A stretch of 64,000 nt of DNA from an uncultured Pseudobdellovibrionaceae bacterium (GCA_964616705.1 CAZTRP010000014.1:8770-72769), one strand, 5' to 3'; shown: positions 16,493-58,875, counted from the first letter of the stretch. The notes: a model not told the origin generated them from the sequence alone. Numbers and translations: made by a program.

Positions 16493-17461
16493 CTAGAAGT
16501 CAGCGCTTACAATAAAGAGCGCCTGAAACGAACTGTCGCGTTGTCCCAAGAGGAATTCATTTTCTGCTGGCCCATTGCCCGAAGAGACTCGGTAAGCGAT
16601 TTGTGCGCCTACGCTTATCGGATCATAAACTTTAAATAAGCCGCCGAGTCGAAGGCGATTGTAACTAGGGCCGTTTAAGTTTGAATTCCCTGTGGTTGGT
16701 CCTATTCTTGAATAACTTCCTGATGCCCCCAAGCTAAACGTGGCATCTGCAAAGAGATTCAGGCGTCGATCCCATTCCCAGTTGAGCCCAAGTCCAAAGC
16801 AGAGCCCACCTATTCCAATGGTTTCTATCGACGTACCGGCGACACGCCCCGAAGTTTGGGTTTCACTCACGCTGCCCCAACCGAGCAAAAAGCGGGGCCG
16901 CCAAAGCATTTTTCCAACCGCCACCGGATATTCTGCCCGGGCAGCAGCAATGAAGCTTAACTGTTTTATCTGACGAGTTTCCTCGTGCGCGTCGTCGTAG
17001 ACTAGAGTTTGGTTTGGGGTAAATGCGTAAGACAATTCAAGCTCAGCACCGAAGTTGGAGTTGAGACGGTACGATGCGCTTCCATTGATTGCGAAGCTAT
17101 CGGTAAGAAACGCTGTAGCGAGTATGGTTTCGTTGGCCGAATTGTTACTGTGCAAGGAGTTGTAGCCCAGGCCACCTTGAACGTGAAATCGTTTCACGGT
17201 GTTTTTTCGAGAGGGGCTTTGACTAGGAGGCGGCTCGTCTTCCAGCGGCTGTTTCTGAACGGCTTCGCGGGTGGGACGAATGGGTTTTTTCTCAGCTGGT
17301 GGCGGCGGTGCTTGGCGTCGTTTCAAGGGGGCCAGGTAATCGACCTCGGGTTCGCCAGCTTTGCGTTCTTGCTCGGGTACGGGAGTGCTTTCAGGTGGAA
17401 ACTCCGCCCAAGAATAGGTGGATACGAAAACACTCCAGAGAAGAATTAAAAAGAAGCTCAA
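16493..17461 (-). CDS. Putative outer-membrane beta-barrel protein with a Pro-rich periplasmic N-terminal region.
   Basis: It has a signal peptide, a Pro/Glu-rich linker and an alternating amphipathic beta-strand pattern. The C-terminus ends in '...FIVSADF' (terminal Phe). Confidence 0.6.
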   Translation of the reverse strand: MSFFLILLWSVFVSTYSWAEFPPESTPVPEQERKAGEPEVDYLAPLKRRQAPPPPAEKKPIRPTREAVQKQPLEDEPPPSQSPSRKNTVKRFHVQGGLGYNSLHSNNSANETILATAFLTDSFAINGSASYRLNSNFGAELELSYAFTPNQTLVYDDAHEETRQIKQLSFIAAARAEYPVAVGKMLWRPRFLLGWGSVSETQTSGRVAGTSIETIGIGGLCFGLGLNWEWDRRLNLFADATFSLGASGSYSRIGPTTGNSNLNGPSYNRLRLGGLFKVYDPISVGAQIAYRVSSGNGPAENEFLLGQRDSSFQALFIVSADF

Positions 17462-17765
17462 AGTGAGTTTATTCTAGCAGACAAATCTCAGCGGCGAATC
17501 GATTTCGCCCCAGCCCAGATATTCTCCAGGCTGGAGCGATACGTTGCGAATTCTAGATGTCGTTCCCGTTGCGAAGTCTAAGGTGTTCTCTCGAGGGGCT
17601 GTTAAACTTCGGATCAAGTCCGTGTGACAAGGATAAATTCGCGTTAAAAACTGAAGCGCCGCAACATTTGATAGCGCCTGCTAACAGCAAGGCCCAAATC
17701 GATGGGTTGACATCCGGCGCCACTCGCGACGAACATGGGGAAATTAACCAATCCTCAAATTACGC

Positions 17766-19523
17766 GTGGCAAAACAAAAAATCACATCCAGCAGCACAGC
17801 GGAATATTTTTCGAAGAACCTACAGCAGGTTGGCTTTTCTTCGCCCACTAAAGCTGTTCTCACAACTCTAAAGGAAGCTGTAGACAACTCTTTGGATGCT
17901 TGCGAGGAAGCAGGCATCTTGCCCGATATTTCGGTTTTCATCGAAAAGGTGGGAACGGGTACCCTTAAAAACACTGATTTGATCAAGATCCGCATTGAAG
18001 ACAATGGGCCGGGTCTTGAGCTCGACGATGTCACCAAAGTATTCGGTGAATACCTCGCTTCTTCAAAGTTTGGACGAGGAAGGTGCTCTCGAGGGCAGCA
18101 GGGTATCGGTATTTCCGCTGCCACGACTTGGGCGCAGCTTACTAGCGCCAAGGGCGTTCAAGTAATTACCAAGACGGCGAAAATGCGTCAGGCCGTTTCC
18201 ACCGTCGTAAATGTCGACATCAAGAACAACAAAGGAATTTTGCAGGACAAAAAGACGATTCAGTGGAATCGTCCACATGGCGTAAGCGTAGAGTTTTTGA
18301 TTGATGGGCGCCTGCAACTTCAGGGCGAAGGTGGCCTGCTGACCTATCTTACGGGCACGAGCCTTGTGAACCCTCACCTTACTTTGAAATACAAAATTGG
18401 CGATAATCCGTTGGAAACGGTTGAACGTGTCACCAAGGAATGCCCGAGTATCCCGGAAGCGACCGAGCCGCACCCGCACACGATGAAACTGGGCGAATTT
18501 ATCGCGCACTCTCACCTATTTGGAAAAATTACTGTCGGTGCATGGTTGAAGCGGGGTTTTTCCCGCATTACCGATAATACGATTCAAGATCTGGTAAAGG
18601 CCGGTATCAAAAAGGCCGTGTTTGAGAAGTCACTCGATTCCACGACGGAAACCGAGTTCAAGGACGTTTTCTCTAAACTCCAGTCCGTGCCCTTGATGGC
18701 CCCAAGTACGCGTTCTGTTATTACGATTGGGGAAGACGCCTTTTCCAAGAGCGTACGGCGCTTGGGCGAAATAGATTTCTTTTCCGTGGTAACGCGAAAG
18801 CCCACGATCTGTGACTTTAAGCCAGTGGCTGTCGAAGTAGCAGTGGCGCGTCTTAAGAACCCTTCAAAAGTTGTGGGGGAAGAAGATTCTCCTGCCTCGG
18901 TTCTTCGTTTCGCGAACCGTGTTCCGTTGCAGTTCGATAAGGCCGCTTGTGCGATGGTTAAATCTATCGAGTCGGTGAACTGGCGCACTTACGGACTTCA
19001 ACAGGCTAAAAATGGTGTACCGAGCGGGCCGTACGTTATTGCAGTGAGCCTGGTTTCCCCTTTCATTAAGTTTAAGAACGCCTCAAAGGAAACTGTCGAT
19101 GCGAGCGATGAGCTGGTCGAAGAGTTTCGAAGAGCTCTAATACAAGCGGGGCAGCGCCTTTCCAGGCACATTCGACGAGAGTCTCGAGAGGCAGATCTTG
19201 AAAACAAGATTCGCCATATTGAGCAGTTTTGTCCGATTTTAGTAGATTGTCTTTGCCGTATTACAAAATCGCCTGAGAAACGAAAGCAGAAGGCCACCGA
19301 AGGCCTAGTGAAACTCTTGGGTAGAGATGTGCGAGTGGCAGAGAAGCAGCTTGAAGAAGCGGTGGAAGATCACAAGAAGGCTCAGAAGGAAGGGAAGCTC
19401 CAAGTTGTCGACGAGGCAACTGGCGAAGGGGAATCCGCTGAGCAAAGCGAAGTAGTTGAGCAAAAGAAGGCGCCTTCAAAGAAGAAAGCGAAGCCCGCTC
19501 GTAGGGAGAAGAGTGCATCATGA
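17766..19523 (+). CDS. Type IIB DNA topoisomerase subunit B (Topo VI B-like, GHKL ATPase).
   Basis: Bergerat-fold motifs are present: the N-box 'LKEAVDNSLDACEEAG', G1 'IRIEDNGPGL', and G2 'GRGRCSRGQQGIGISAA' followed by 'VITKT'. A transducer-like region follows, and the tail is Lys-rich. The start is GTG. Confidence 0.85.
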   Translation: MAKQKITSSSTAEYFSKNLQQVGFSSPTKAVLTTLKEAVDNSLDACEEAGILPDISVFIEKVGTGTLKNTDLIKIRIEDNGPGLELDDVTKVFGEYLASSKFGRGRCSRGQQGIGISAATTWAQLTSAKGVQVITKTAKMRQAVSTVVNVDIKNNKGILQDKKTIQWNRPHGVSVEFLIDGRLQLQGEGGLLTYLTGTSLVNPHLTLKYKIGDNPLETVERVTKECPSIPEATEPHPHTMKLGEFIAHSHLFGKITVGAWLKRGFSRITDNTIQDLVKAGIKKAVFEKSLDSTTETEFKDVFSKLQSVPLMAPSTRSVITIGEDAFSKSVRRLGEIDFFSVVTRKPTICDFKPVAVEVAVARLKNPSKVVGEEDSPASVLRFANRVPLQFDKAACAMVKSIESVNWRTYGLQQAKNGVPSGPYVIAVSLVSPFIKFKNASKETVDASDELVEEFRRALIQAGQRLSRHIRRESREADLENKIRHIEQFCPILVDCLCRITKSPEKRKQKATEGLVKLLGRDVRVAEKQLEEAVEDHKKAQKEGKLQVVDEATGEGESAEQSEVVEQKKAPSKKKAKPARREKSAS

Positions 19524-20662
19524 AGACAGACGATTCCATTCCACATCTTTCAGAAAAACTTTGCTTACGCCTTTTGTCCGACCTTGAGAATGCTCGGCGC
19601 CCAGTTTTGGAAGCCGTGAAATGTTCGCTGGACAATGCGGAATATAATTTTAAAGTCGGCTACCTCACCCCGGGATCGAAGAAAGTCCGAACAGAACTTA
19701 ACGTGTCTTCGGTTCAAAAGATGTCGCGAGCGATTTTTCTTTTGGAAATTCTTCTTCGAAATCTCGAAACGGGCGCAGTGAATACGAAGCGCGAGCTTTA
19801 TTACATCTCAAAAGGTGAAATCAAGCACGATCCGGCTCTAAAACCGCTCGACTTTGCCGATCAGAACGAAAGCGATGCTATCATCGATTTCATTTGCGAA
19901 ATGCTGGAATGTTATCGGGAAGAATTGAATTGTTTTGCAAACGATCGTGGCGGTCAGACTTACTCTCAGCAGCTCGTGGTCACCGAGACAATGCCCGATG
20001 GCGAGAAAGCGGTTGTGGACCTGAGCAGCTTGGGTACCAGCCCCTTTCAGCCAAAGAATCGTCCGCAGAGCTTAAAGTTAAAGGCGAAAAAACGAATAGA
20101 TTTTTGCCTTGTCGTTGAATCTGAAGGCACCGCGAACACCTTCGTGGCCAATGGATTTTGCAAACGCAATAATTGCATCCTTATGGGTGCACAAGGGGTG
20201 CCGAGCAATGCGGTGCGGGGCTGGTGTAAGTTGATTCAAGATCAACTCAAAGTCCCCATTTACTTTTTTGGCGACTTGGACGCGTACACCATTCAAAATA
20301 TTTACCGTACGCTCAAGGCAGGATCTGCGGCCAGTTTGATTAGAAACTCCGACTTTTCCGCGCCCGATGTAAAGTTCCTGGGAGTATTGCCAGAAGACAT
20401 TAAGAAGTACGACTTGAACGACTATCCGGTTCGAGAAAATGACCTTCAAGAGGCGCGAGCGTTAAAGAAAGCTGCCGATGCACTCAAGAATGACCCCTTC
20501 TTTAAAGACAAAAAGAACAAAGGGGTTTCGCAACTCTTAGAGTGGTTGCTAAAGAACAAACGCCGTTGCGAACAACAGGCGTTTTTTACGGTAGATCCCA
20601 GGGATCCCACCATGCCCGAGAAAATCATTATCGAGAAAATTAAGCGCGGGAATTTTATCTAA
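19520..20662 (+). CDS. Type IIB DNA topoisomerase subunit A (Topo VI A / Spo11-like).
   Basis: The WHD/CAP motif 'TKRELYYIS' carries the catalytic Tyr and the upstream Arg. The Toprim domain has the Glu in 'CLVVESEGT' and the DxD in 'YFFGDLDAYT'. Its start overlaps the topo VI B stop (ATGA). Confidence 0.85.
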   Translation: MKTDDSIPHLSEKLCLRLLSDLENARRPVLEAVKCSLDNAEYNFKVGYLTPGSKKVRTELNVSSVQKMSRAIFLLEILLRNLETGAVNTKRELYYISKGEIKHDPALKPLDFADQNESDAIIDFICEMLECYREELNCFANDRGGQTYSQQLVVTETMPDGEKAVVDLSSLGTSPFQPKNRPQSLKLKAKKRIDFCLVVESEGTANTFVANGFCKRNNCILMGAQGVPSNAVRGWCKLIQDQLKVPIYFFGDLDAYTIQNIYRTLKAGSAASLIRNSDFSAPDVKFLGVLPEDIKKYDLNDYPVRENDLQEARALKKAADALKNDPFFKDKKNKGVSQLLEWLLKNKRRCEQQAFFTVDPRDPTMPEKIIIEKIKRGNFI

Positions 20663-21767
20663 GCCTGAGTCGAGTCGCGCTTAGAATCCAAAGACCGAAG
20701 CAACCAAATACCTTTGTAAAATAATTTCCGGCTCGTGGATCCCAGGCTTGCTTAGGCCAAAAGTCGGTGTAGCAAAAGGTAATCAACATCGCGCAAATTG
20801 CGAGGGTCGATAGGTAGTGGTTTTTCTTTTTATCGCCGGTCCATTCCAGAACAAGCAAAAGATACGCGGGGGCAACGAGCACAAAAGTAGGCGATTCCGT
20901 TCGAGGGCTGAGTAACAAAAGGGCGGACGCTACAAACGTGAAGCCACTCGCTGTAAGAATGCCATCGGCCGCGGACTTTCGAAGTTTTAGCAGAATCAGC
21001 AGAGTCAGGGTGGCGACTCCAGCTCGTAGAGTAGTGCCAAACAGAGGGAAACCCAAACGGCTCAATACGGACTCCAGATCAAGCAAGCCCGCGGATCCCA
21101 TATCGGAACCTAGCGCTCGGCCCCAATCCAAATGGGCGGTAAGGGCCCCCAGAGGTCCCAAGAAGAGAGTGGGCGCTAAAAATAAGCCAAGGGTGGTCAG
21201 ACCGAAAGATCGCAAGAAGGGGCCGCACCAGGGAAGCGCAAACACGAAAACCCCGGGGAGTATTTTGAAATTCGTCCCCAGCGCGAGCCAAAATCCCGAC
21301 GACTTAAATTTTTTGTCTCGGTAGTCAGCTAATCCGAGAAGAACTAAGCCCACAATGAGTGCATTTACCTGTTGGTAGCGTAGTGAAATATCAAGTTCCA
21401 TGGACACCAGTGCAAGCGCAGCCCAGTGCAGCCAAGAATTTTTCGCGCTAAATATTTTCCAACGGGAGACCCCCGTCCAAAATACAAAAGCTCCCAATAG
21501 CGCCCAAGCCAGTGCTTGAATCCTGTCGGGAAGATAAGCAAATGCGCCGTAGAGTGCTGCAAAGCTAGGTGAGTACTTGAACAGGTCTCCGTTTCCGTTC
21601 GGTGGAGCGTACGGACTCTCTCCCAACCAAATATGGTGGGCCGCACGCTCGTACGTTTGGGTCACAATATTTTTGCCCGTTTTTACTAAGCCCGGTGCTA
21701 GAAGGAGCCAGCTGTAGAGCGTGAGTAAAATGACTTGGCGGAAAAACGGTTTCACTGAGGTACCCAA
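20655..21767 (-). CDS. Polytopic membrane protein, DUF2029/GT87-like (putative polyprenol-phosphate-sugar-dependent glycosyltransferase).
   Basis: It has about 10 predicted TM helices. The N-terminal loop contains 'YPP'/'YAP' and 'SPSFAALYGAFAYLP' motifs of the DUF2029 type. It overlaps the upstream gene by 16 nt. Confidence 0.5.
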   Translation of the reverse strand: MGTSVKPFFRQVILLTLYSWLLLAPGLVKTGKNIVTQTYERAAHHIWLGESPYAPPNGNGDLFKYSPSFAALYGAFAYLPDRIQALAWALLGAFVFWTGVSRWKIFSAKNSWLHWAALALVSMELDISLRYQQVNALIVGLVLLGLADYRDKKFKSSGFWLALGTNFKILPGVFVFALPWCGPFLRSFGLTTLGLFLAPTLFLGPLGALTAHLDWGRALGSDMGSAGLLDLESVLSRLGFPLFGTTLRAGVATLTLLILLKLRKSAADGILTASGFTFVASALLLLSPRTESPTFVLVAPAYLLLVLEWTGDKKKNHYLSTLAICAMLITFCYTDFWPKQAWDPRAGNYFTKVFGCFGLWILSATRLRLR

Positions 21768-23686
21768 ACTGCGCTGAGAATTTTATCGCCTACTTCCAGC
21801 GTATCGACGACGTTCAAACCTTGAGTCACTTCAGCAAAAACCGTGAATCGGCCATCTAAGTGAAAGTTGGGAGCGAGATTAAAGTAGAATTGGCTTCCTC
21901 CGGTATCTTTCCCACTGGATGCCAGGCCAACGGTGCCACGCTTATTCTGCCAAAAGGATATTTCGTCGCGCACTAAGTAGCCGGGGCCACCGAAGCCGTG
22001 ATGGGTGGGGTCACCTCCTTGGGCCACAAAGCCGGGAACCACACGGTGGAACTCAGAGTTGTTATAAAAACCGTTTCGCACAAGACGAACGAAGTTCAAA
22101 CTATTTAGCGGCGCTTCGGCGAGCATTCGCAACCGGATTTCCCCACGGTTTGTTTTAAGTACTACGTGAGAACGCACTGCTTTTTGTACCTCTTCCGCTG
22201 TGAAAGGAGTCTGTCCAGATCGTACTTCCGACGAAGGGATCGGGGGAGTCGCACCTAGGGAAGACAGCGCCGATAGAACAGCATTCTTGGCTTCCACCCA
22301 GTCGGTTTTGGCCAGGTTTGAGTAGGTTACGCTAAGAGGCGAAATAAAATCTGTCCAATGTCCTTGTTCGCTGAGGGCCGCCACCAAAGCAAGGGGACCT
22401 GGCTCTTTCCGGTCCAAGAGAAGCCTGAGCGAGTTCTTTATTTCTGGGGTGAAGTCCTCCTGTCCCCATTGGACCAACTTATCGAGCATTTCAATTATTA
22501 GAGTGGGGTTGGGGTCCTTAAGCAGCGTTGCGATCAAAGGGGCTTCTTCGGGACGAGCCGCCAAGGCAATAGCGCCAGCAGCCGAAGCTCTAATATCCGA
22601 TTTTGGATCGCTAATTTCTTTAAGCGCAAACGGTGTCCATTGTTCCGCGTCGATAGCCATTCCCGCATAGAGGCAGTGTCCACGAACCCATGGAGATTTA
22701 TTTTTCTTGTACACCGCCATTACCGCTGGCGACAGTTCCTTCGCTTCCACTTTGTAAGAGGCGGTGGCTTCTAAAGTTGGCACGAGGATGTGGCTTTGGG
22801 GGCTCTCTAGAGCTGAGCGAAGGGACGCAGAGACGTTCTTAGACCAAGTCTGTTGACCAAGTGCTTTGATGGCTTCAGTTCGTGTCGACGTAGAAATGGC
22901 TGTAGCAAACTTATGAGCGAGTAGGGACGTTGATGCAGGTGTTTGGATTTTTCCCAGAATTCGTAGAAAAAAGTTTCCTGCATCTATCGATTTTACCTGG
23001 TCTGAGGTGCGAAGCGTTTCGTCCGGGGGATAAAATGAGGGAAGTCCCTTAAAGCGCGAAAGCGCAAAGCCACAATTTAGGGCGAGTTCGTCACTTTGTT
23101 TTGAGCGCTGAAGCAATAAGGAAATAATTCCCCTTGGGACTGCCCAATTTTCTGAATCTTTCGCCCATAGAGAACCCACCGCGAGGCATATTCCACTTAG
23201 CACCGTTGGATCCGCCCGCCCTCTTAATCCTTCAGCCAAGACAGCAAGGTGCTTCTCCCCGCCGGCCCTTCCAATGGAAAGGTAGAGTTGCCGAAGTACT
23301 TTGGGATCTTGTTGCATGGCAAGATGTTGCACAGCCATGGTGACCGCCGTTTCATCGGGAATCAGTCCTAGGGCAAATGCGACATCTTCTTTGTTGGGAG
23401 CTCTCCTACGGTTGAGTTCCCCAGACAGCTCCATCAGCAGGGAGGGGTCGCCAATTCGGGCAATAGCCCAGATGGCCGCTTGCCGAATGGTGGGGCTCGA
23501 GTGATGAATAGCGGTAGCCAGGTAGGGGTCTTTAAGTGTGCGTTGGTTTTCGGCCGTCCAAATTCGATTTAAGGACGCTTGCGATGTTTGCGCTGGCCCG
23601 CGGTGGGCGGTCCGAGCCTTTGCTTGCAAAAGGGTGCTGGCGAAAATGGCGACAACGCAAGTAGCCCAAAGCCGTAAGTTTCGCAT
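21752..23686 (-). CDS. Secreted HEAT-repeat protein fused to a C-terminal cyclophilin-type peptidyl-prolyl isomerase domain.
   Basis: It has a signal peptide and repeated HEAT-like units such as 'PTIRQAAIWAIARIGDPS'. The C-terminal 160 aa carry the cyclophilin motifs 'FHRVVPGFVAQGGDP' and 'GTVGLASSGKDTGGSQFYF'. Confidence 0.8.
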   Translation of the reverse strand: MRNLRLWATCVVAIFASTLLQAKARTAHRGPAQTSQASLNRIWTAENQRTLKDPYLATAIHHSSPTIRQAAIWAIARIGDPSLLMELSGELNRRRAPNKEDVAFALGLIPDETAVTMAVQHLAMQQDPKVLRQLYLSIGRAGGEKHLAVLAEGLRGRADPTVLSGICLAVGSLWAKDSENWAVPRGIISLLLQRSKQSDELALNCGFALSRFKGLPSFYPPDETLRTSDQVKSIDAGNFFLRILGKIQTPASTSLLAHKFATAISTSTRTEAIKALGQQTWSKNVSASLRSALESPQSHILVPTLEATASYKVEAKELSPAVMAVYKKNKSPWVRGHCLYAGMAIDAEQWTPFALKEISDPKSDIRASAAGAIALAARPEEAPLIATLLKDPNPTLIIEMLDKLVQWGQEDFTPEIKNSLRLLLDRKEPGPLALVAALSEQGHWTDFISPLSVTYSNLAKTDWVEAKNAVLSALSSLGATPPIPSSEVRSGQTPFTAEEVQKAVRSHVVLKTNRGEIRLRMLAEAPLNSLNFVRLVRNGFYNNSEFHRVVPGFVAQGGDPTHHGFGGPGYLVRDEISFWQNKRGTVGLASSGKDTGGSQFYFNLAPNFHLDGRFTVFAEVTQGLNVVDTLEVGDKILSAVWVPQ

Positions 23687-32486: not shown

Positions 32487-33872
32487 ATGACCGGTTTAGT
32501 GGGTGGGGGAAAACTGCCGAGCCGCACGGTCTGCGCTTGGTTTATTTTTGCGCTAGGCGTACAGCTTTTCTTCGCTATGCCGGTGGGAACGAATCCCGCC
32601 TCCCGATGGGCCGCGCTTTGTGCCTTAGCCGAGGACGGCTCACCCCGCATCGATACTTATTTGGAGCACACCATAGATTGGGCCCGAGGGCCCGACGGGC
32701 ATTACTATTCCAACAAAGCGCCCGGGCCTCTATTGATCGGCTACCCTGTTTTTAAACTTTTAGATTATTGGCAAACTGCCTCTGAACCCGATCGCAACAT
32801 TCGAGATGGAATACGGTATGAAATGCGGGGGCCGAATCTTCGAGTACTTTGTTTTCTGTTTCAGATTGTCCCATTTTTTTTCTTGGCATTGATGTGGTGG
32901 AAAAAATGGGAGGGTTGGGGAGGCTCGCGGCGTGCCCGCGAAATCGGGCTCATTACTCTTTTGATGGGAACTACCGCGACGGTTTTCTTAAACAGCTACT
33001 TTGGGCACGGCATGGCTGCTGTAAGCGTCTTGGCCTTGGCCTATTTCGCCTGTGCCGGGGCAGTCTTTTGGAGTGCCTTCTTTTTCGGTATCGGCGTTTT
33101 GTGTGAGTACAGCGTTGGGTTGCTCATTTTGCCGCTGGCTTTTTTTTGGATTCAGAGTTTTTGGGCAGCGCCGAGAAAAGGGATCTGGATCTGTCGCTTC
33201 TTCGGTGGGGCACTGTTTCCGGCTTTGCTGTGGAGCGCTTACCATCTTTATTGTTTTGGGGGAGTGCTGACCCTTGCGAACCAGTATCAAAACCCACTTT
33301 TTGTTGAGCCAGCTGGCAAAAAGCTCCTGCTCTGGGGAATTCTTTCTCTCCCGAATCCTCACATAGCTTGGAGTCTGCTGTTTGGGATGGATCGTGGTCT
33401 GTTTTGGACGCAACCCTGGGTATTGGCCGTTGCCGTTTTACTTATTGGCAGTTTGCCTCTGAAGAAAGCCCCTGGGCAAAAGGAGGCAATTGGAGCGTTC
33501 GTGGCGCTCATTTTGTTTTTCCTGCTAAACGCCTCCTTCAATGGGTGGCATGGCGGGAGCACTCCCGGTCCACGCTATCTGAGTCCGGTCTTGCCATTAG
33601 TTTCGTTTGCTTTAGTTTTTTTGTGGGACAGCTTTGGCAAAATTACACAGACCATCGTCGCTGGGCTTGTTCTTGGCAGCGTCGTCTCTCAGATTCTATT
33701 TCTCTCGGTTTACGGTTTGCCACCTCAATCAGAGCCGATTTGGTTGTTTTATTGGAATGCGTTCAAACTAAATCCCTACGGAACCACAGGTCTGCGATTG
33801 GCCGTGGGCTGGTCTGTAGGAATATTTTTATTCTATTTAAGCTTGCGGGCGACGCGTCCAAAAACTATTTGA
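32487..33872 (+). CDS. Polytopic membrane protein of about 12 TM helices. It may be a GT-C-type glycosyltransferase.
   Basis: It is highly hydrophobic, and its first extracytoplasmic loop contains 'TIDWARGPDGHYYSNKAPGP'. It has no recognisable catalytic motif beyond topology. Confidence 0.45.
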   Translation: MTGLVGGGKLPSRTVCAWFIFALGVQLFFAMPVGTNPASRWAALCALAEDGSPRIDTYLEHTIDWARGPDGHYYSNKAPGPLLIGYPVFKLLDYWQTASEPDRNIRDGIRYEMRGPNLRVLCFLFQIVPFFFLALMWWKKWEGWGGSRRAREIGLITLLMGTTATVFLNSYFGHGMAAVSVLALAYFACAGAVFWSAFFFGIGVLCEYSVGLLILPLAFFWIQSFWAAPRKGIWICRFFGGALFPALLWSAYHLYCFGGVLTLANQYQNPLFVEPAGKKLLLWGILSLPNPHIAWSLLFGMDRGLFWTQPWVLAVAVLLIGSLPLKKAPGQKEAIGAFVALILFFLLNASFNGWHGGSTPGPRYLSPVLPLVSFALVFLWDSFGKITQTIVAGLVLGSVVSQILFLSVYGLPPQSEPIWLFYWNAFKLNPYGTTGLRLAVGWSVGIFLFYLSLRATRPKTI

Positions 33873-36661: not shown

Positions 36662-38707
36662 ATGTCAAAGCGGAAATTTCGGCCTGTCCCGTGGTTTGTC
36701 GCAAGTATTGTCCTTCTCGGCGCTTCGATCTATGTGTGGCAGTTCCACAAAGATGGCGCCAATTCCGAACCCGATCAATTCCTGCATTTTGCACTTGGCA
36801 GGCAGATGGCCGAGCAAGGGTTTATTGAAAAAATTCCGCAGGCAACAGATTTGAGTTGGAGCGAGCACTACGACAACGAATATTTCTTGTTTACTGGATT
36901 GACGGCGCTGGCGTGGAAGGTGGGAGGCGAGAATGCTGCCCGAGCTCTAGTGCCGATTCTTGTTACCTTGCTCGCGCTGCTGGTCTTTAAGTTTTGTCGT
37001 AGGTACCTGCATTGGGGTTGGGCGCTTGGATTGTCCCTCTACTTGCTCTTGCACCCATACACTGTCTCTCGGTTTCTGGCGCTTCGTCCTTCGCTGTTGG
37101 CGGAATCGCTCTTTCTTGGGCTGGTCTTTGGTTTGGTGGAATCGAACGTTTGGGTCGTTGCGGCTACTGCTTTTTTGTTTCCGCTAAGTTACCACGCGAT
37201 TTATTTTCCGGCGCTTGCGCTTTTGTTCGCAGCGTTACTTGGCCGAATCTACTCTCCCAAGTGGCTCAAGACTTCGGCAATCGGGGGCGCAGCACTCATT
37301 GCGGGCATTTGTTTGCACCCTGCCTTTCCTCACTCTTTGGAAATGGTAACGAACGTTTTCACGGCGACTCTGAGGCCCGTCCAAATTCCACTGAGTGAGA
37401 GCTCCATGGAAGTGCAGGGATGGCTAAAGGAACAGCTATTTGGCAGAGTGCCATTTTTTCTTGCGATACTAACCATTGCTCTTTGGCAATTGTCCATGGA
37501 ATGGGCGCCTACGCGCCCCAAGAAACGCGCTACCAAGGTATTCTGGGAACCAGAATTTCTATTCCTATTTGGACTGACTGCTGTGTTTGTTGCGCTTTTA
37601 CTGCTTTCTTATCGTGCAGTGGAATATGCCGGTCCGTTAGGTTTGGTTTTCGCTGCGCTTGTTATTGGACGTACGGCACGAGGAGGAAAAGAACGGGCGG
37701 CGTTTTTTGTCATGGGGTTTGTTTTCCTTTTGCCGGAATTTCCAAGTGTATGGATTAGGCCATTTCCTCCAAGCGTTCCAATGTCGGAACTAAGACAGGC
37801 GATACTGGCGTTGCCTCCGGAAGCCAATGGCAAGAAAGTTTTCAACTGCGATTGGTATACGGGCGGCCCGATTCTGTATTGGAATCCAAATGTGCAATTT
37901 TCCGACCTCGGTGATCCGGGCGCGATTGAAAAGTCCCATCCCGGATTTACCTCATTAAAAATGGCGCTGCGCCTTGCCGAGGTTCCCTATTTGCTTGGAC
38001 CCGTGCGGTATGCATTTAAGTCGGACTACGTACTGTGTCAGCATAGCCCAATGGTCCAATCTATGGAGGGAAGCCCACATTTCCGTCGTCTGTTTCCCAT
38101 TCCGTCGAAGCGTTTTGAAGAAATTCCGGCGTCATCGTATTTCGTTTACGAAGTAGCCAAGAGCCTCAACGATTCATTTGTGACAGCTTTTGAGGTATCC
38201 AATCGCTCGGTCGCTTCTACCTGGTCTAAGCTTGAAAGCAAGTCCGCCTTGCCGCCCGAACAGCGATCCCCTTTTGTTGGCCTCGGCAGTCAAACTTCAG
38301 CTGATCGTACTCCTACGTCTTCCGGGAATAATTGCGTTGAGCTTAGGCCCACTTCCGAAGCTTGGAACGGGGCGATTGGGGCTAAATACTTGGGTTTGGG
38401 AGGGGGACCCGAAGTCGAAGTATCCCTAAATGGACAAAAGTTTTTTGACCGCAAAAAGTGGTCTGTGCGTAAAGACCTCGATGTTCTAGTTCCTCTGCCA
38501 AAAGCGCTATCACAAAAAGACAACTTAAAGATAAAAGTGTGTTCGCAAAAGGACCGGCTCCGGTCAGGCATCGCCGTTTCTCTTTGGACTCCGGAGAGGC
38601 TGCGGAGTATTTGCGATTGGAAAAATGACCCGCTCGAATCTTCCATGAAGACTTACTTGGATAGGCCGCTGAGAACTTGTCTTGGGCCTGTGGCTACTTT
38701 GCACTGA
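36662..38707 (+). CDS. Large polytopic membrane protein with a roughly 300-aa C-terminal extracytoplasmic domain. It may be a GT-C-type transferase.
   Basis: It is 681 aa with about 11 N-terminal TM helices followed by a soluble domain. It lies immediately downstream of the Dpm1/GtrB-like GT2, matching the Gtr/Arn-type gene arrangement. Confidence 0.45.
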   Translation: MSKRKFRPVPWFVASIVLLGASIYVWQFHKDGANSEPDQFLHFALGRQMAEQGFIEKIPQATDLSWSEHYDNEYFLFTGLTALAWKVGGENAARALVPILVTLLALLVFKFCRRYLHWGWALGLSLYLLLHPYTVSRFLALRPSLLAESLFLGLVFGLVESNVWVVAATAFLFPLSYHAIYFPALALLFAALLGRIYSPKWLKTSAIGGAALIAGICLHPAFPHSLEMVTNVFTATLRPVQIPLSESSMEVQGWLKEQLFGRVPFFLAILTIALWQLSMEWAPTRPKKRATKVFWEPEFLFLFGLTAVFVALLLLSYRAVEYAGPLGLVFAALVIGRTARGGKERAAFFVMGFVFLLPEFPSVWIRPFPPSVPMSELRQAILALPPEANGKKVFNCDWYTGGPILYWNPNVQFSDLGDPGAIEKSHPGFTSLKMALRLAEVPYLLGPVRYAFKSDYVLCQHSPMVQSMEGSPHFRRLFPIPSKRFEEIPASSYFVYEVAKSLNDSFVTAFEVSNRSVASTWSKLESKSALPPEQRSPFVGLGSQTSADRTPTSSGNNCVELRPTSEAWNGAIGAKYLGLGGGPEVEVSLNGQKFFDRKKWSVRKDLDVLVPLPKALSQKDNLKIKVCSQKDRLRSGIAVSLWTPERLRSICDWKNDPLESSMKTYLDRPLRTCLGPVATLH

Positions 38708-41756: not shown

Positions 41757-42494
41757 ATGAAACTCAAAGACGCTGTAGAAAAAATACAAAATCGGGGACT
41801 TCTTCTAGTCTATCCCCTGCAAAATCGGCCGGAACCCCGATCATTGTGGTCGGAGTTCTATCCAAGAACCAAAATGCGTTGGGAATGGGACTCTGAGGGT
41901 GCAGACAATCGCGTGGCTAATCTGTGGCACCTACGTGAAGCGATTTCGCGTTCCGGACAAGTGGTTTACACAAAATGGTTCCGTGGCCGAGCTACGTTTC
42001 TTTCAAAAGAGATCTTCTCGGCATTTTTAGCGCTCCTTAGAGTTCCTGATAGCTCCCTAAGTCGTGCTGCTAGTCAGTTATTGCGGGTGCTTGAAGAAGA
42101 CTCCCCGCTTTCTACTAAAGAGCTAAAGAAACGTTGCCGTCTGGTTGGCCCTGGAAACGAAAGGGTTTACTCAAAGGCATTACAAGAGCTTTGGGACTCA
42201 ATGCAGATTGTTGGTTACGGAGAGGTCGATGATGGGGCATTTCCGTCGCTCGCCATTGGGGCCACGCGGGTTTTGTTTGATGAACTGGTAAAGAACGCGG
42301 AGTCTCTAGATCTTGGTGAGGCCGAGGCGCTAGTTCAAGAAAAACTGGGCAAAGATTCTGTGGTGTATAAGTATTTCTTAAAGCGGCGCGCCGCTCTTTC
42401 TTTAAATCCCGTAAGCCGCGTCCCTAAGAAACGAAAATCCGCTGAAATAGGCGGTATGGTCCGCTACGAAGATTTAGTCCGTGGTGAGCGCTGA
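41757..42494 (+). CDS. Hypothetical protein (about 245 aa). It may be a winged-helix protein.
   Basis: The ORF has a good length and an acceptable start context, but I recognise no family confidently. Confidence 0.45.
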   Translation: MKLKDAVEKIQNRGLLLVYPLQNRPEPRSLWSEFYPRTKMRWEWDSEGADNRVANLWHLREAISRSGQVVYTKWFRGRATFLSKEIFSAFLALLRVPDSSLSRAASQLLRVLEEDSPLSTKELKKRCRLVGPGNERVYSKALQELWDSMQIVGYGEVDDGAFPSLAIGATRVLFDELVKNAESLDLGEAEALVQEKLGKDSVVYKYFLKRRAALSLNPVSRVPKKRKSAEIGGMVRYEDLVRGER

Positions 42495-43877
42495 ACACCT
42501 TTTCGGTAGGTACGCTACGAGGGGGCCACGGCGGGCATTTTTAGAATTTGTTCGGATAAGTACTTTCTCGACCCACCCCGGTTCAAAACTCGTCACTTTT
42601 TCGTATCGTGCATTCCAATCCGTATCTGGAACAAAATCGGATCGAAGCAATGAAAGCGTCGAGCAGTTGGAATTCGAATAGTTTGCTCGAGCGATGGAAG
42701 CCCATTGAACCTTTCGAAGTAACAGGGCTTGTGGGTAAAACACCAGAGCGCCCCCAACGCCATCGACGGCAGAAATTTCCGGGTGAAGAGCAAGCCACGC
42801 GGTGAGCTGAATGAGATTTCTTTGCGCCGTATTGGTACACGTCACCAAAAGCAGAAAGGCGTTGAGGCCCACGAACCAGGCCTTGCGCCAGGGGGCGCCG
42901 GCTTCCCGTAGCCAAGCAGCGAGTGGAACCAGGCAAAAAAGGAAGATCGGGACAACGGGAACAAGAAATCTCTCCTCCTTGTGGGGCGATAACGTGTGGG
43001 CGAGGAGAAAAAACACGAAGTAACTCAGGGGGGCCAAGTATCCGGCAAAGGCCTCTTTCCACGCAAAACCGCGGTACCTAGAGAGCAATGCTGGAGGAAG
43101 GGTCAGGCCAAAGGTAAGTGCCAAGAAGGTGTAAAATGGCATACGCCCGAAATGTTCCCCCGAGTACTGGATATTGTATTCAACATAGCTTCTAAGCTGA
43201 CTGTGAAAACGCCCTTGTAGAAACCAGTCGGGAAGGCCCGTAAGGACGAAAACCCCTAGGCCGAAGGCCAAGAAAAGGGACAACTCCCGCGGCCGCCTAG
43301 TTTGTAGGACCACGCATGCAAGGCCTAGAACGCAAATCCCTGCTTGAAATCTCATCATGGAGGCCAAACCAAGAAAGCCCAATGCCATGAGTAGTGAGCG
43401 CGGTGACGTGCTTCGTTGGTAGTTTCTTGCATGAACTGCACTCCAAGTAAGAAAGGGCATGCAGAAAGTCTCAATCATCGGACGAGTAGAAAACAAAGGA
43501 AGGGCCCAATAGAAGCAAATCAAAACCTGGGCAATTCTGCGTTGGAGCGCTGTTGATCTATCGAAAAATGCGGTGGTGGCCCAAAATTGGAGCACGAAAA
43601 CCACTCCTCCCAGTAGAGCGAGGGCGAATCGCATTTGGGAAATGGGATCCAAAATTCCAAATAGCAGGGGAATCTGACCGAGGCCCAAAAGAAGCAGCTT
43701 TGGAACGTAGGGGTGAATTCCGGAAATAAGCGCTCGCCAGTGAGGAGATTCCTGTGCGGGCACCATGATCGCAAAGCCGTTGTTGTAGTCGTCAATGCTG
43801 ATAATGCTCAGGTTAAAAAAACCCGTCAGAGCGGTAACTAGGAAACCAGTCCAAAATATTACTGCAGATGTAGGCAT
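42474..43877 (-). CDS. GT-C mannosyltransferase, GT22/Alg9-PIG-B-like (polyprenyl-phosphate-mannose dependent).
   Basis: It is polytopic. The N-terminal loop has 'SIISIDDYNNG' (acidic DxD-like). The family signature '...SPHKEERFLVPVVP' matches the HKEERF motif of Alg9/Alg12/PIG-B-type alpha-mannosyltransferases. The start is set at the internal Met at 43877. Confidence 0.65.
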   Translation of the reverse strand: MPTSAVIFWTGFLVTALTGFFNLSIISIDDYNNGFAIMVPAQESPHWRALISGIHPYVPKLLLLGLGQIPLLFGILDPISQMRFALALLGGVVFVLQFWATTAFFDRSTALQRRIAQVLICFYWALPLFSTRPMIETFCMPFLTWSAVHARNYQRSTSPRSLLMALGFLGLASMMRFQAGICVLGLACVVLQTRRPRELSLFLAFGLGVFVLTGLPDWFLQGRFHSQLRSYVEYNIQYSGEHFGRMPFYTFLALTFGLTLPPALLSRYRGFAWKEAFAGYLAPLSYFVFFLLAHTLSPHKEERFLVPVVPIFLFCLVPLAAWLREAGAPWRKAWFVGLNAFLLLVTCTNTAQRNLIQLTAWLALHPEISAVDGVGGALVFYPQALLLRKVQWASIARANYSNSNCSTLSLLRSDFVPDTDWNARYEKVTSFEPGWVEKVLIRTNSKNARRGPLVAYLPKRCSALTTD

Positions 43878-43896
43878 GGCTGGACGAATCCTAGCA

Positions 43897-44667
43897 CTAG
43901 AGGGGTAGGTGGAATAGCGGCTTGTCGGTGTCCTTTTTAAACAAGAATAAGTAGTTAAATCCGCGAAGGAAGTAGTTTCCATCGACTGCGGCAGTGTGCC
44001 AGTGGTTGCGTTTTAGTGTCCGGTTGTGCCGAGTCACGCTGATAATGTCGATTGGGTGGAATTGGCGCTTAGCCAACTCAAAGAGTTCAAAGCCAATGGG
44101 CGAGAAAGGCTTGCCCTTCTTGTAGGAGTCACAAACATAAATAGCGAAGTACCGCTTGTTCTTGAGCACCCGAAATGCCTCGCCAATCACCTGATTCATT
44201 GCCTGGTAATAGTCGGGGGTACGTGAATCCAGTTCGCCAATACATTGGGGATCCCCGGAATACCGAATATGGTTCGAATAGGGGGGATCCATAAAAAAGA
44301 AGTCTACGGTTTCAGGCTGCAGGGGGAGATTTCGGGCGTCCGCCTTCACAATGTCTTCCCGGAAGGGGGCAATATCAAAACCCAGGCCTTTTCGTTTTAA
44401 GTCTTGGCAAACGGCAAGTGTGGTACCGCTCCCGCACATTGGGTCCACCACGGTGTCGTTTTCGCGCGTATAGCGCTCTAGTAGGTTCCAAATGACATAA
44501 GAAGGCGTCGCCCCCTTATAGTCTTTGTGCCCTTGCATTCCGGTTCCGTAATGTTGAGAGGGGTACTCCCAAAGTGTGGTGGTTTGCAGCTTGAGAGAGG
44601 GTCTCTTCCAAAGCTGAAAAGGCTTTTTCGGCCCCTTGGCCGGGTGCATTTGGGCTTGGTCGTCCAT
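43897..44667 (-). CDS. N6-adenine/N4-cytosine-type DNA methyltransferase with a permuted motif order (I before IV).
   Basis: 'LWEYPSQ...GATPSYV...LLERYTRENDTVVDPMCGSGTTLAVCQDLKRKGLGFDIAP' matches the AdoMet-binding half of N6_N4 MTases (motif I). The catalytic 'FFMDPPYSN' (motif IV) lies about 30 aa downstream. I see no partner restriction gene. Confidence 0.6.
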   Translation of the reverse strand: MDDQAQMHPAKGPKKPFQLWKRPSLKLQTTTLWEYPSQHYGTGMQGHKDYKGATPSYVIWNLLERYTRENDTVVDPMCGSGTTLAVCQDLKRKGLGFDIAPFREDIVKADARNLPLQPETVDFFFMDPPYSNHIRYSGDPQCIGELDSRTPDYYQAMNQVIGEAFRVLKNKRYFAIYVCDSYKKGKPFSPIGFELFELAKRQFHPIDIISVTRHNRTLKRNHWHTAAVDGNYFLRGFNYLFLFKKDTDKPLFHLPL

Positions 44668-49208: not shown

Positions 49209-50705
49209 TCAAATAGAGGTTTGTTCCAGATGCCTTGGAGAACTACTTTTTGATACCCAGCAGAAGGCGTGGCTTAGCATCCAACAGAATGGCAAAACTC
49301 GGGTTACGTGAAAAAGAAGCCAAGCCGGGCCTACTTCCGCAATTGGACCTTGGATAAGGACCAACAGCCAGATACTCCAAATGTTGTTCGGTAGCGGAGA
49401 AAGCACTAGAGCGTTTGCGAAAAGGAATAAAGCAAAAAGAAATCCAGAAAGCATTACCAAGCCAAGCCACTCACCGTAGACATACGCCTCACCAAACATA
49501 GTGAACGAAACGGCAGTGTTTTCATCTTCGTCCGAAGTGACATCCGCCCAATGAGCCAGGAAAATTCCCTTCTTAAACGGGGTGTCTCCAGTTACGGAGG
49601 TGGGAAGAATATCCAGCGTTGAAAAGAAAAAGCGCATTCCCAGAGTCCCTGCTAGTGCAGATTTCGAAATTAGAATATCCGCTGCTTTAATCAGGGAGAA
49701 GCGCTCAAGCAGCATGCTTCGGGCGTTTTCATAGTAGCCGCCGGTTTCCGTTAAGAAGTTGATCTCATCTTCCTTACGCTGCTCGTAGACAGAAGACAAA
49801 GATTCGGAGCTACTAAGAAGTTCGGAAACCATCTTAGTAACAATCTCGACCTTCTTTGGAAGAGTTTCCGTAAATACGAGATCTCTCGCTAGGAAGGTGA
49901 TGGGAACAATTACAGTGGTAAGAAAGAACGCGGCTCCCGCCCCTACTATGATCGCTATCATCTTTGGACGGTAGCCAAAGTAATAAGCGGCTAGGACCAA
50001 GCAGAGTAATGCTTCAAAGCTCAGGCTCTTGCTTGTAGTGACCACACCCAAAACAACTTGGACCAGGACAGTAAAAAGGACCAAGAAGTCTGTGCAATGT
50101 TTCCTGCTAGTCTCCATCACTCTTGCGCCAACCGCTGAAACTGTCGACAGAGGAAGTGCAAACTTAAGGTAGCTGGCCATGCCTGCGCCCATGGGGCCAA
50201 GGGATTCGACTGAAAGCCCAAAGTAGACGAGTGAGCCAAAGAAACCAACAACGAGACTCGTGATAGATATTCTTCGAAGCCTCACCGGGTCGACGATGGA
50301 AAGGAAATGCGTTTGTTTTGGGGTGCGAATCGATCCTAGATGGAAAGAGACACAAGCGACAGTGAACATTCCCACCGTCATAACTCCCATCGTAAGAATA
50401 GGGGTGGTGAGATTCGAGTGAGCGGGTTCCAATAGACCAAGTTTTGCGACTTGGGAGATGAGGACGGTCTTAAGCGCAAGCGCTGCCAGAGCCAGTCCGT
50501 TCACTGTTCTTGCTCCACCCAGCGAGTTAAACGCTATGACAAAGAACTGGGTGTAAGAGAAGAAAAGCAGGGCAAAAATGGGGTCGGTGTTTGTGAGAAG
50601 CTGACCAATCCCGATAGCTAGGGAAAATGCAAATGAAACCCGCATGGGAATGGCCCCGGCTGAGAGGCGCTCTGCGATACTGATTTTTTCTGCCGCCGTA
50701 GCCAT
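49209..50705 (-). CDS. Polytopic membrane protein. It may be a Wzy-type oligosaccharide repeat-unit polymerase or ligase.
   Basis: It has about 12 TM helices with a large loop, and it sits inside a polysaccharide locus. I identify no definitive motif. Confidence 0.4.
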   Translation of the reverse strand: MATAAEKISIAERLSAGAIPMRVSFAFSLAIGIGQLLTNTDPIFALLFFSYTQFFVIAFNSLGGARTVNGLALAALALKTVLISQVAKLGLLEPAHSNLTTPILTMGVMTVGMFTVACVSFHLGSIRTPKQTHFLSIVDPVRLRRISITSLVVGFFGSLVYFGLSVESLGPMGAGMASYLKFALPLSTVSAVGARVMETSRKHCTDFLVLFTVLVQVVLGVVTTSKSLSFEALLCLVLAAYYFGYRPKMIAIIVGAGAAFFLTTVIVPITFLARDLVFTETLPKKVEIVTKMVSELLSSSESLSSVYEQRKEDEINFLTETGGYYENARSMLLERFSLIKAADILISKSALAGTLGMRFFFSTLDILPTSVTGDTPFKKGIFLAHWADVTSDEDENTAVSFTMFGEAYVYGEWLGLVMLSGFLFALFLFANALVLSPLPNNIWSIWLLVLIQGPIAEVGPAWLLFHVTRVLPFCWMLSHAFCWVSKSSSPRHLEQTSI

Positions 50706-58777: not shown

Positions 58778-58875
58778 TCTAGCAAGTTTGTGGAAGCTCG
58801 CAGGTGAGCGCCCTTGACCTAACGCGCCTTGTCAGATTCGCAATCCCGGTATACTTCTCAACGATTGGAGGTTTG

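Follow-up and report, generated by a model that had tools for sequence, protein, structure and literature searches.

The window analysed here, a 64-kb (64,000-nucleotide) stretch of DNA from an uncultured Pseudobdellovibrionaceae bacterium (GCA_964616705.1, CAZTRP010000014.1:8770-72769), carries the adjacent genes top6B and top6A, which encode the two subunits (B and A) of an archaeal-type topoisomerase VI (Topo VI). The pair is genuine, intact and complete, it is native to a Bdellovibrionota chromosome, and it represents an already known enzyme of that phylum. With a probability that we put at about 0.85, top6BA is all of the following at once: a native operon, the source of a canonical type IIB Topo VI, the provider of the main decatenase and relaxase beside gyrase, and a locus of ancient archaeal origin.

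Gene pair and catalytic residues

The gene top6B (17766-19523, plus strand) begins with GTG and encodes 585 amino acids, and top6A (19520-20662, plus strand) begins with ATG and encodes 380. Stop and start codons overlap in an ATGA at 19520-19523 (plus strand), indicative of translational coupling of B and A; both open reading frames (ORFs) and the overlap lie where the initial annotation of this DNA had placed them. The subunits were identified from the ORFs, from matches to the NCBIfam families NF003218 (B) and NF003335 (A) and from matches to PDB structures (1d3y in the case of A). An identical A protein occurs on 15 public metagenome contigs, where independent gene calls give the same pair of 585 and 380 amino acids with the same neighbours. 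For comparison, we scanned one genome per GTDB species and found A-subunit relatives in 296 species genomes. Statements on related loci refer to the best 80 of these 296; residue invariance was assessed over 79 A and 68 B sequences, and an upstream hexamer over 66 loci.

The B subunit scores 492.3 bits against the Topo VI-B equivalog NF003218 (cut-off 274). It matches the B subunits of Methanosarcina mazei (2q2e_B; 7e-80, residues 5-482, 33 % identity) and Saccharolobus shibatae (2zbk_B; 1.6e-61, residues 2-522, 28 % identity), with the catalytic positions aligned, which bears out an alignment with Sulfolobus-type Top6B reported at the outset. The residue numbers of the archaeal enzymes and the roles attached to them (general base, Mg/ATP contact, switch lysine, catalytic Arg/Tyr, Toprim site) are taken by us to be established literature. 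The GHKL (Bergerat) ATPase core, Pfam-matched over residues 33-158 (17862-18239, plus strand; HATPase_c_3 3.8e-08 and HATPase_c 3.6e-07, above the Pfam cut-offs), contains the general base E37, the Mg/ATP asparagine N41, the G1 box D79-N-G-P-G83 and the G2 box G110-Q-Q-G-I-G115, all of which are invariant among the related B sequences. E37 aligns with S. shibatae E38 and M. mazei E44, and N41 with S. shibatae N42 and M. mazei N48. The B motifs quoted in the initial annotation are all present, at residues 37-50 (EAVDNSLDACEEAG), 77-84 (IEDNGPGL) and 103-119 (GRGRCSRGQQGIGISAA).

Downstream of the ATPase core, a continuous, in-register and ungapped alignment with M. mazei residues 211-310 points to an H2TH region, a domain found in type IIB enzymes only, at about residues 229-310 (18450-18695, plus strand). 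The transducer domain follows at residues 313-480 (18702-19205, plus strand), where the Pfam profile Topo-VIb_trans is matched over positions 1-158 of 159 (4.3e-42). It includes W406-R-T-Y409, the counterpart of the WKxY motif, with W and Y invariant, and the switch lysine K441, likewise invariant, whose counterparts are S. shibatae K427 and M. mazei K435.

The A subunit scores 415.8 bits against NF003335, the cut-off of which is 424; the next-best A model reaches only 165 bits, so the subfamily assignment is clear. The best structural match is Top6A of Methanocaldococcus jannaschii (1d3y; 1.3e-35, 34 % identity). A winged-helix (5Y-CAP) domain at residues 67-137 (19718-19930, plus strand; TP6A_N, 2.2e-14) holds R91 and the catalytic Y95 (codon 19802-19804), aligned with positions 31 and 35 of the 1d3y chain. 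These presumably correspond to M. jannaschii R99 and Y103, if the crystallised construct starts at residue 69. The Toprim domain spans residues 195-360 (20102-20599, plus strand; TOP6A-Spo11_Toprim, 9.4e-40) and carries the metal ligands E200 (20117-20119), D252 (20273-20275) and D254 (20279-20281), which align with M. jannaschii E197, D249 and D251. The five residues R91, Y95, E200, D252 and D254 do not vary among the 79 A sequences. The motifs from which the catalytic Arg/Tyr, the Toprim Glu and the DxD had originally been read are located at residues 89-97 (TKRELYYIS), 198-204 (VVESEGT) and 250-256 (FGDLDAY). Thus, all four domains expected of a Topo VI (HATPase_c, Topo-VIb_trans, TP6A_N and Toprim) are recovered by Pfam, and the catalytic residues align with those of 1d3y.

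By homology to the M. mazei and S. shibatae enzymes, we anticipate that the two products assemble into an A2B2 heterotetramer. The B dimer would bind ATP through its GHKL fold (E37, N41, G1 and G2) and close on the duplex to be transported (T-segment), and the transducer, through K441, would pass the nucleotide state to the A dimer. The latter could then use Tyr95, together with the Toprim residues E200, D252 and D254 that bind Mg, to cut the gate duplex (G-segment), after which the second duplex would go through the break and the break would be resealed.

Distribution, ancestry and chromosomal setting

The best 80 of the 296 relatives share 79-95 % A identity and are spread over three classes, the Bdellovibrionia, Bacteriovoracia and Oligoflexia. 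Their genomes are labelled Pseudobdellovibrionaceae, Bdellovibrio, Bacteriovorax, Bacteriovoracaceae or Oligoflexia, and include the cultured Oligoflexus tunisiensis Shr3. The nearest (93-95 %) are metagenome-assembled genomes labelled Pseudobdellovibrionaceae, a family of the Bdellovibrionales. The starting premise that type IIB enzymes are absent from most Bacteria thus holds for the domain as a whole, where they are rare, but not for this lineage. In 78 of the 80 loci top6B is directly upstream of top6A, as the B-then-A order first noted would suggest, and the other two loci are cut by a contig end. The order proC-gltA-top6B-top6A, followed further on by uvrD, is kept in the 16-19 closest genomes. 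One contig labelled 'candidate division WWE3 bacterium' (L041; JBBRLF010000222.1) also carries a top6BA pair, with an A subunit 82 % identical to that of Bdellovibrionota; this is most likely a binning contaminant and not a WWE3 gene.

The pair evolves slowly. Synonymous sites are saturated between all available genomes, and selection was therefore compared by the nonsynonymous rate (dN) only. In every comparison top6A has the lowest dN of all genes in the neighbourhood (0.04-0.15), against 0.06-0.22 for gltA, 0.16-0.29 for uvrD and 0.13-0.36 for gatA; the values for top6B resemble those of gltA. Purifying selection on the pair is therefore no weaker than that acting on core metabolism.

Beyond this clade, relatives are distant. 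When 1.84 billion sequences, each representing a cluster at 50 % identity, were searched exhaustively with HMMER, a single full-length A representative at 56 % identity was returned (L082), with an adjacent B gene, and no other full-length sequence above 35 %. Fused B-A proteins of 750-1060 amino acids match the A subunit with no more than 26-28 % identity (E about 1e-12 to 1e-15), and are possibly Topo VIII-like. Distant Topo VI-like B and A genes also occur on two further contigs (L087:1994-4586 and L090:837-4607), with 28-30 % (A) and 24-25 % (B) identity to the window proteins; both pairs are surrounded by many small ORFs in succession for which no Pfam match is recorded, a viral or mobile-element-like context, and on L090 four small ORFs separate B from A. 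On another outgroup contig (L091:115-1918) B is present as two overlapping ORFs, a 261-amino-acid GHKL part and a 352-amino-acid transducer part, which may reflect a split gene, a frameshift or an assembly error.

In a crude neighbour-joining tree of Kimura distances (59 sequences, 352 columns, no named Spo11 or Topo VIII outgroups), all 100 of 100 bootstraps unite the Bdellovibrionota sequences in one clade. Distances within the clade are at most 0.24, the nearest outgroup is at 1.39 and the stem measures 0.65. The sister group consists of M. jannaschii Top6A and two cluster representatives (78-84 of 100 bootstraps). This position agrees with a published one, in which one bacterial Topo VI cluster lies next to Methanococcales and at least two transfers of Topo VI from archaea to bacteria are inferred (PMC11302465). 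The tree supports, but does not prove, an old acquisition from a euryarchaeal lineage. Any lateral acquisition is ancient and not recent, since relatives are present in 296 genomes and the best 80, at 79-95 % identity, extend across three classes. The gene pair probably came from a Methanococcales-like lineage of archaea prior to the split of the Bdellovibrionota classes, and would then have been inherited vertically under strong purifying selection.

Two suggestions of the initial annotation are narrowed by these data. It had left open whether the pair was a bacterial Topo VI or a divergent member of the Topo VI/VIII/Mini-A radiation, and had called for a phylogeny. The first option stands, with A grouping beside M. 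jannaschii Top6A in the tree of 59 sequences; a Topo VIII or Mini-A identity is ruled out by this grouping, by the separate subunits and by a B score over the NF003218 cut-off. Its suggestion of lateral acquisition is compatible with the data as an ancient event and fails as a recent one.

The surroundings of the pair are those of a bacterial chromosome. To the left lie rho, two lspA copies, tig, clpP, clpX, lon, metK, a LysM protein gene, the ribonuclease J gene rnj, an HD-GYP protein gene, proC, gltA and the gene for an outer-membrane beta-barrel protein that directly precedes top6B. To the right, a GT87 glycosyltransferase gene comes first, followed by genes for a cyclophilin-HEAT protein, uvrD/pcrA, gatA, gatB, polysaccharide genes and recR. 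The annotated ORFs of the window are thus housekeeping or envelope genes, and no integrase, transposase, relaxase or phage gene was found among all ORFs of at least 150 amino acids in the 64 kb, in line with the ordinary envelope flanks and missing plasmid hallmarks described earlier. Composition, previously judged native by eye, proves so by computation: GC content is flat across the window (0.48-0.53, about 0.50), the z-scores of GC at third codon positions (GC3) are -0.07 and +0.06 for the pair against 37 other window genes, and 34 of those 37 genes lie farther from the average codon usage of the window than the pair does. A foreign composition is therefore ruled out, as GC, GC3 and codon usage cannot be told apart from the background.

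These results bear on the idea that the pair was acquired recently on an integrated plasmid or provirus and is a Topo VIII- or Mini-A-like element gene. Type IIB topoisomerases do occur on plasmids and viruses (PMC7671362), and the distant L087 and L090 loci have mobile-element-like surroundings. Against this stand the unfused subunits, the lack of element genes in 64 kb, the native GC and codon usage and the synteny in the 16-19 closest genomes. Transfer RNA genes lie 3.5 kb and 39 kb from the pair, with neither flanking repeats nor an integrase. When Top6A was compared by tblastn with 72,556 plasmids, only three haloarchaeal megareplicons were matched (26-29 % identity), and 50,697 phages gave no match, so that no bacterial plasmid or phage relative was found. 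We consider a mobile-element origin as good as ruled out by the absent element genes, the plasmid and phage searches, the composition and the synteny; these results contradict the integrated plasmid or provirus that the initial annotation had named as a refuting outcome.

Recoded DNA-sensing elements and proposed cellular role

The catalytic residues are canonical, and several DNA-sensing positions of the archaeal enzyme are not. Strand passage by M. mazei Topo VI requires the KGRR loop (residues 186-189) of Top6B and its stalk/WKxY residues K399, K401 and R457, and the H2TH residues R263, K268 and K308 couple ATP use to cleavage (Wendorff and Berger 2018, PMC5922973). At the position of the KGRR loop, the B subunit of the window has D180-G-R-L-Q-L-Q-G-E-G-G190 (18303-18335, plus strand), with a net charge of -1 against +3; M. 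mazei K186, G187, R188 and R189 lie opposite L185, Q186, G187 and E188. The motif D-G-R-[IVL]-Q-[LMV]-[NQ]-G-[ED]-[AG]-G, with its net charge of -1, is present in 68 of 68 Bdellovibrionota B subunits and also in the sister clade at 56 % identity. Two stalk/WKxY residues have changed as well, K399 to N405 (N in 66 of 68 relatives) and R457 to Q463 (68 of 68, with R or K at the neighbouring position 464). Other positions are retained: the DNA-contact residues R263 and K268 of M. mazei correspond to K262 (K in 65 of 68) and R267 (R in 68 of 68), and W400, K401 and Y403 to W406, R407 and Y409.

Beyond the clade, the sample of loops is small. Three archaeal B subunits have a basic loop (charges of +3 in M. 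mazei, +2 in S. shibatae, and +3 on contig L089, which its genomic context marks as clearly archaeal), two others (L081 and L091) have a weakly basic one, and three other divergent lineages, two of them in mobile-element-like contexts, have a non-basic one. Loss of the KGRR loop is therefore not unique to the Bdellovibrionota clade, and a basic loop is a feature of the studied enzymes and no criterion for the Topo VI family. Given the net-acidic motif in place of KGRR, the way in which the T-segment is sensed or the ATPase is coupled may depart from the archaeal model. Our literature search found no paper commenting on the loss of the loop in this clade.

If the sensor were rewired, T-segment capture or DNA affinity might be provided by other surfaces instead, such as a clade-specific FGRGRC segment of the ATP lid or, in some lineages, long basic C-terminal tails. 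In the window, the B tail (residues 521-585; 19326-19520, plus strand) is an acidic stretch followed by a Lys-rich end, with 9 K/R in the last 20 residues, as the initial annotation had it. Judged from its sequence the tail is probably disordered; identity to relatives falls to 0.14-0.40 in this region. Across the 68 relatives the part after residue 520 ranges from 24 to 245 amino acids and from -9 to +72 in net charge. It is Lys-rich in the close relatives of the window and short and acidic in about half of the clade; a Lys-rich tail is thus ruled out as a family feature, and the tail cannot make up for the missing basic loop across the clade. Long tails occur in Oligoflexus, in Top6B of O. 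tunisiensis Shr3 (L071:5835-7990, 718 amino acids) and of Oligoflexus sp. FD111 (L078:5650-7960, 769 amino acids). They measure 190 and 245 amino acids, consist of A/K/P-rich repeats with net charges of +23 and +72, and recall histone H1 and other basic DNA-binding tails.

A rival reading is that the pair makes programmed double-strand breaks as Spo11 does, or forms the nuclease part of a defence system, and passes no strands. In its favour, Top6A and Spo11 are homologous, the KGRR loop needed for strand passage in M. mazei is missing, and GHKL and Toprim domains occur in some defence systems. In contrast, B keeps an entire ATPase site together with the switch lysine and the WKxY motif of the stalk, all of them invariant, the genes have a housekeeping context, and purifying selection on them is extreme. 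Neither protein matched a PADLOC model at E <= 0.01, and a defence system was rejected on this ground. We regard a break-making or defence function as very improbable, and a Topo VI with strand passage as the better description of the pair.

As to its task in the cell, gyrase is present in all bacteria that have Topo VI, and Topo IV only in those that belong to the Pseudomonadota and Terrabacteria (PMC11302465). By this statement, the Bdellovibrionota member of that survey lacks Topo IV. The window itself holds none of gyrA, gyrB, parC and parE. The M. mazei enzyme is reported to complement a temperature-sensitive parE mutant of Escherichia coli (unpublished data cited in PMC11302465). Judging by distribution and literature, ATP-dependent decatenation and relaxation in place of Topo IV is the most likely function; next to gyrase, the enzyme would then serve as the principal decatenase and relaxase of supercoils in a phylum for which Topo IV is reported to be absent.

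Several points weigh against the reading of the pair as a canonical Topo VI in this role. The A subunit scores just under the equivalog cut-off (415.8 against 424), and the loop that M. mazei Topo VI needs to pass strands has given way to a net-acidic motif. A 2023 review lists a 'Top IV (Bd0005)' for Bdellovibrio bacteriovorus (PMC11318664), in conflict with PMC11302465; Bd0005 may be a misannotated gyrA. Finally, our literature search found no biochemical or genetic test of any bacterial Topo VI.

A functional Topo VI might also have a specialised role in Bdellovibrionota biology and be no general stand-in for Topo IV, for instance in filamentous, multi-chromosome, non-binary growth inside prey or on a histone-coated nucleoid. 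A lineage-specific adaptation is suggested by the occurrence of the pair throughout the phylum, its very slow evolution and its long stem from other Topo VI. Clade-wide recoding of DNA-sensing elements (K399 to N, R457 to Q and the KGRR loop) speaks for a specialised role as well, as do the lineage-specific B tails, including the histone-H1-like ones in Oligoflexus. The review mentioned above groups Topo VI and histones as unusual chromosome-architecture proteins of B. bacteriovorus (PMC11318664). On the other side, no histone, SMC or division gene is co-localised with the pair within the window. The pair is also found in O. tunisiensis, presumably a free-living, non-predatory member of the phylum, which argues against a strict tie to predation. 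A specialised role is in our judgement unlikely as an alternative to general decatenation and relaxation beside gyrase, with which it is compatible and not mutually exclusive.

A stronger form of the preferred reading holds that Topo VI is the universal and sole decatenase of the phylum Bdellovibrionota, was fixed at the phylum root and works with a rewired DNA-crossing sensor. Taken as a whole this is doubtful. If the sensor is indeed rewired, the bacterial enzyme would be a mechanistic variant of the archaeal one and not a copy of it. Bacterial Topo VI, that of Bdellovibrio included, is already catalogued and routinely annotated, and the pair has little value as a discovery. What goes beyond the literature found is the quantified phylum-wide presence and extreme conservation, the recoded crossing-sensor loop and the variable B tail, which are hypothesis-generating. 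The clade is large (at least 80 species-level genomes), conserved (A evolves more slowly than citrate synthase) and a natural 'mutant' of the KGRR loop. It is suited to two questions, how type IIB enzymes sense the T-segment and whether Topo VI truly replaces Topo IV in bacteria, and could raise a third, that of a selective drug target in predatory bacteria.

Expression signals, neighbouring genes and known counterparts

Several features around the start codons suggest how the operon is expressed. Among 78 related loci, the junction of top6B and top6A is -4 in 23 and -1 in 15, and nearly all the rest have less than 40 nucleotides. A Shine-Dalgarno-like AGGGAG (19503-19508, plus strand) is embedded in the top6B codons R-R-E-K, 12-17 nucleotides before the ATG of top6A; in 55 of 79 loci a core of this kind falls between -20 and -4 relative to the start of top6A, compared with 12 % at random positions. 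Upstream of top6B, a perfect -35 hexamer TTGACA (17707-17712, plus strand) is situated 59 nucleotides before the start codon and is paired with a weak -10 element (GAACAT, 18-nucleotide spacer). The hexamer is unchanged in an alignment of six genomes (the window and its five nearest relatives), and TTGACA is found 36-72 nucleotides before top6B in 29 of 66 loci, where chance would give about 1 % per locus (estimated for a 40-nucleotide window at a hexamer frequency of 1 in 4096). Together, the ATGA overlap, the TTGACA and the embedded Shine-Dalgarno sequence argue for a single top6B-top6A transcript with coupled translation, which would fit a 1:1 complex.

A sigma-70-type promoter of the operon's own is probable. 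Because a generic promoter and terminator scan of 17300-21000 missed the conserved TTGACA and gave counts no higher than the shuffled expectation, the promoter is one that we infer. In ten of the related loci (L015, L022, L024, L031, L036, L038-L040, L045 and L049), TTGACA starts only 36-37 nucleotides before the top6B start codon. If the promoter has the usual geometry, transcription would begin at or beside the start codon, giving a leaderless or near-leaderless top6B messenger RNA.

Within the intergenic region 17462-17765, the blocks GACAAG, GTTAAACT, GATAGCGCCTGCTAACA and TTGACA are invariant among the six closest genomes. The third of these (17670-17686, plus strand; GATAGCG-N2-TG-N-TAACA) contains an imperfect inverted repeat, TAGC-N4-GCTA, and is a candidate operator; it is kept only in the window and its five nearest relatives, despite saturated synonymous sites. 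An Rfam search upstream of top6B gave no match even at E <= 1, and a scan of the whole window gave no RNA element there either.

Some neighbouring genes are of interest in themselves. The two lspA copies are tandem, overlapping genes (1140-1631 and 1621-2121) that both encode full-length LspA (Peptidase_A8; 4e-36 and 5e-44), which indicates a local duplication. The GT87 glycosyltransferase gene next to top6A (20655-21767) and a gene for an Alg9-like GT22 mannosyltransferase (42474-43982) lie within or near a large region of polysaccharide and glycosylation genes at about 29-56 kb. Both families are better known from mycobacteria and eukaryotes. Between GT87 and uvrD, the gene at 21752-23686 encodes a 644-amino-acid protein with N-terminal HEAT repeats and a C-terminal cyclophilin-type peptidyl-prolyl isomerase; it is beside the top6 operon only in the closest relatives (32-70 % identity). 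Four ORFs have no Pfam match at E <= 0.01: 32487-33872 (461 amino acids), 36662-38707 (681), 49209-50705 (498) and 58804-59925 (373).

Among known systems, the closest is that of B. bacteriovorus. Topo VI was reported in 2024 from 17 bacterial families of seven phyla, including the Pseudobdellovibrionaceae with B. bacteriovorus (PMC11302465), and the 2023 review names Bd2864 as the Topo VI of this species (PMC11318664). The same review lists a 'Top II (Bd2865)'; this gene adjoins Bd2864 and is probably Top6B. In NCBI and JGI, proteins closely related to that of the window already bear the name 'DNA topoisomerase VI'. The HD100 enzyme (Bd2864/Bd2865) comes from the same phylum and, judging by the labels of the nearest relatives, probably the same family, and has the same two-gene B-A layout; the window belongs to a different, uncultured species. 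Similarly, the bacterial Topo VI cluster of PMC11302465 occupies the same place next to Methanococcales Top6A as the clade of the window. Within that clade, the pair is structurally unremarkable, and the length and charge of the B tail vary by lineage.

The archaeal enzymes (M. mazei 2Q2E; S. shibatae 2ZBK and 1MX0; M. jannaschii 1D3Y) share the domain order, the catalytic residues and the overlapping B-then-A operon. As for differences, the KGRR loop, K399 and R457 of M. mazei give way in the bacterial clade to a conserved D-G-R-x-Q-L-x-G-E-x-G, N and Q. M. mazei B ends in an Ig-like C-terminal domain, whereas the window B has a charged low-complexity tail instead. Unlike the archaeal model enzymes, the pair resides in a bacterium that, according to the literature, has gyrase.

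Topo VIII is a single fused B-A polypeptide of plasmids and integrated elements, and Mini-A is a shortened A-like protein without a B partner. They are type IIB relatives on plasmids, proviruses and viruses (PMC7671362) and share homologous GHKL-transducer and winged-helix-Toprim modules with the pair. The window, in contrast to Topo VIII, has two separate full-length genes in a chromosomal housekeeping setting, with no bacterial plasmid or phage relative, and its A subunit, in contrast to Mini-A, is full length (380 amino acids), has both domains and is coupled to a complete B.

The functional analogue in other bacteria is Topo IV (ParC/ParE). The two enzymes are presumed to do the same job, the ATP-dependent decatenation of replicated chromosomes and relaxation of positive supercoils (PMC11302465). 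Topo IV is a type IIA enzyme with another fold of the DNA gate; it cuts with a 4-nucleotide stagger and has three gates, compared with a 2-nucleotide stagger and two gates in Topo VI (see also PMC11302465).

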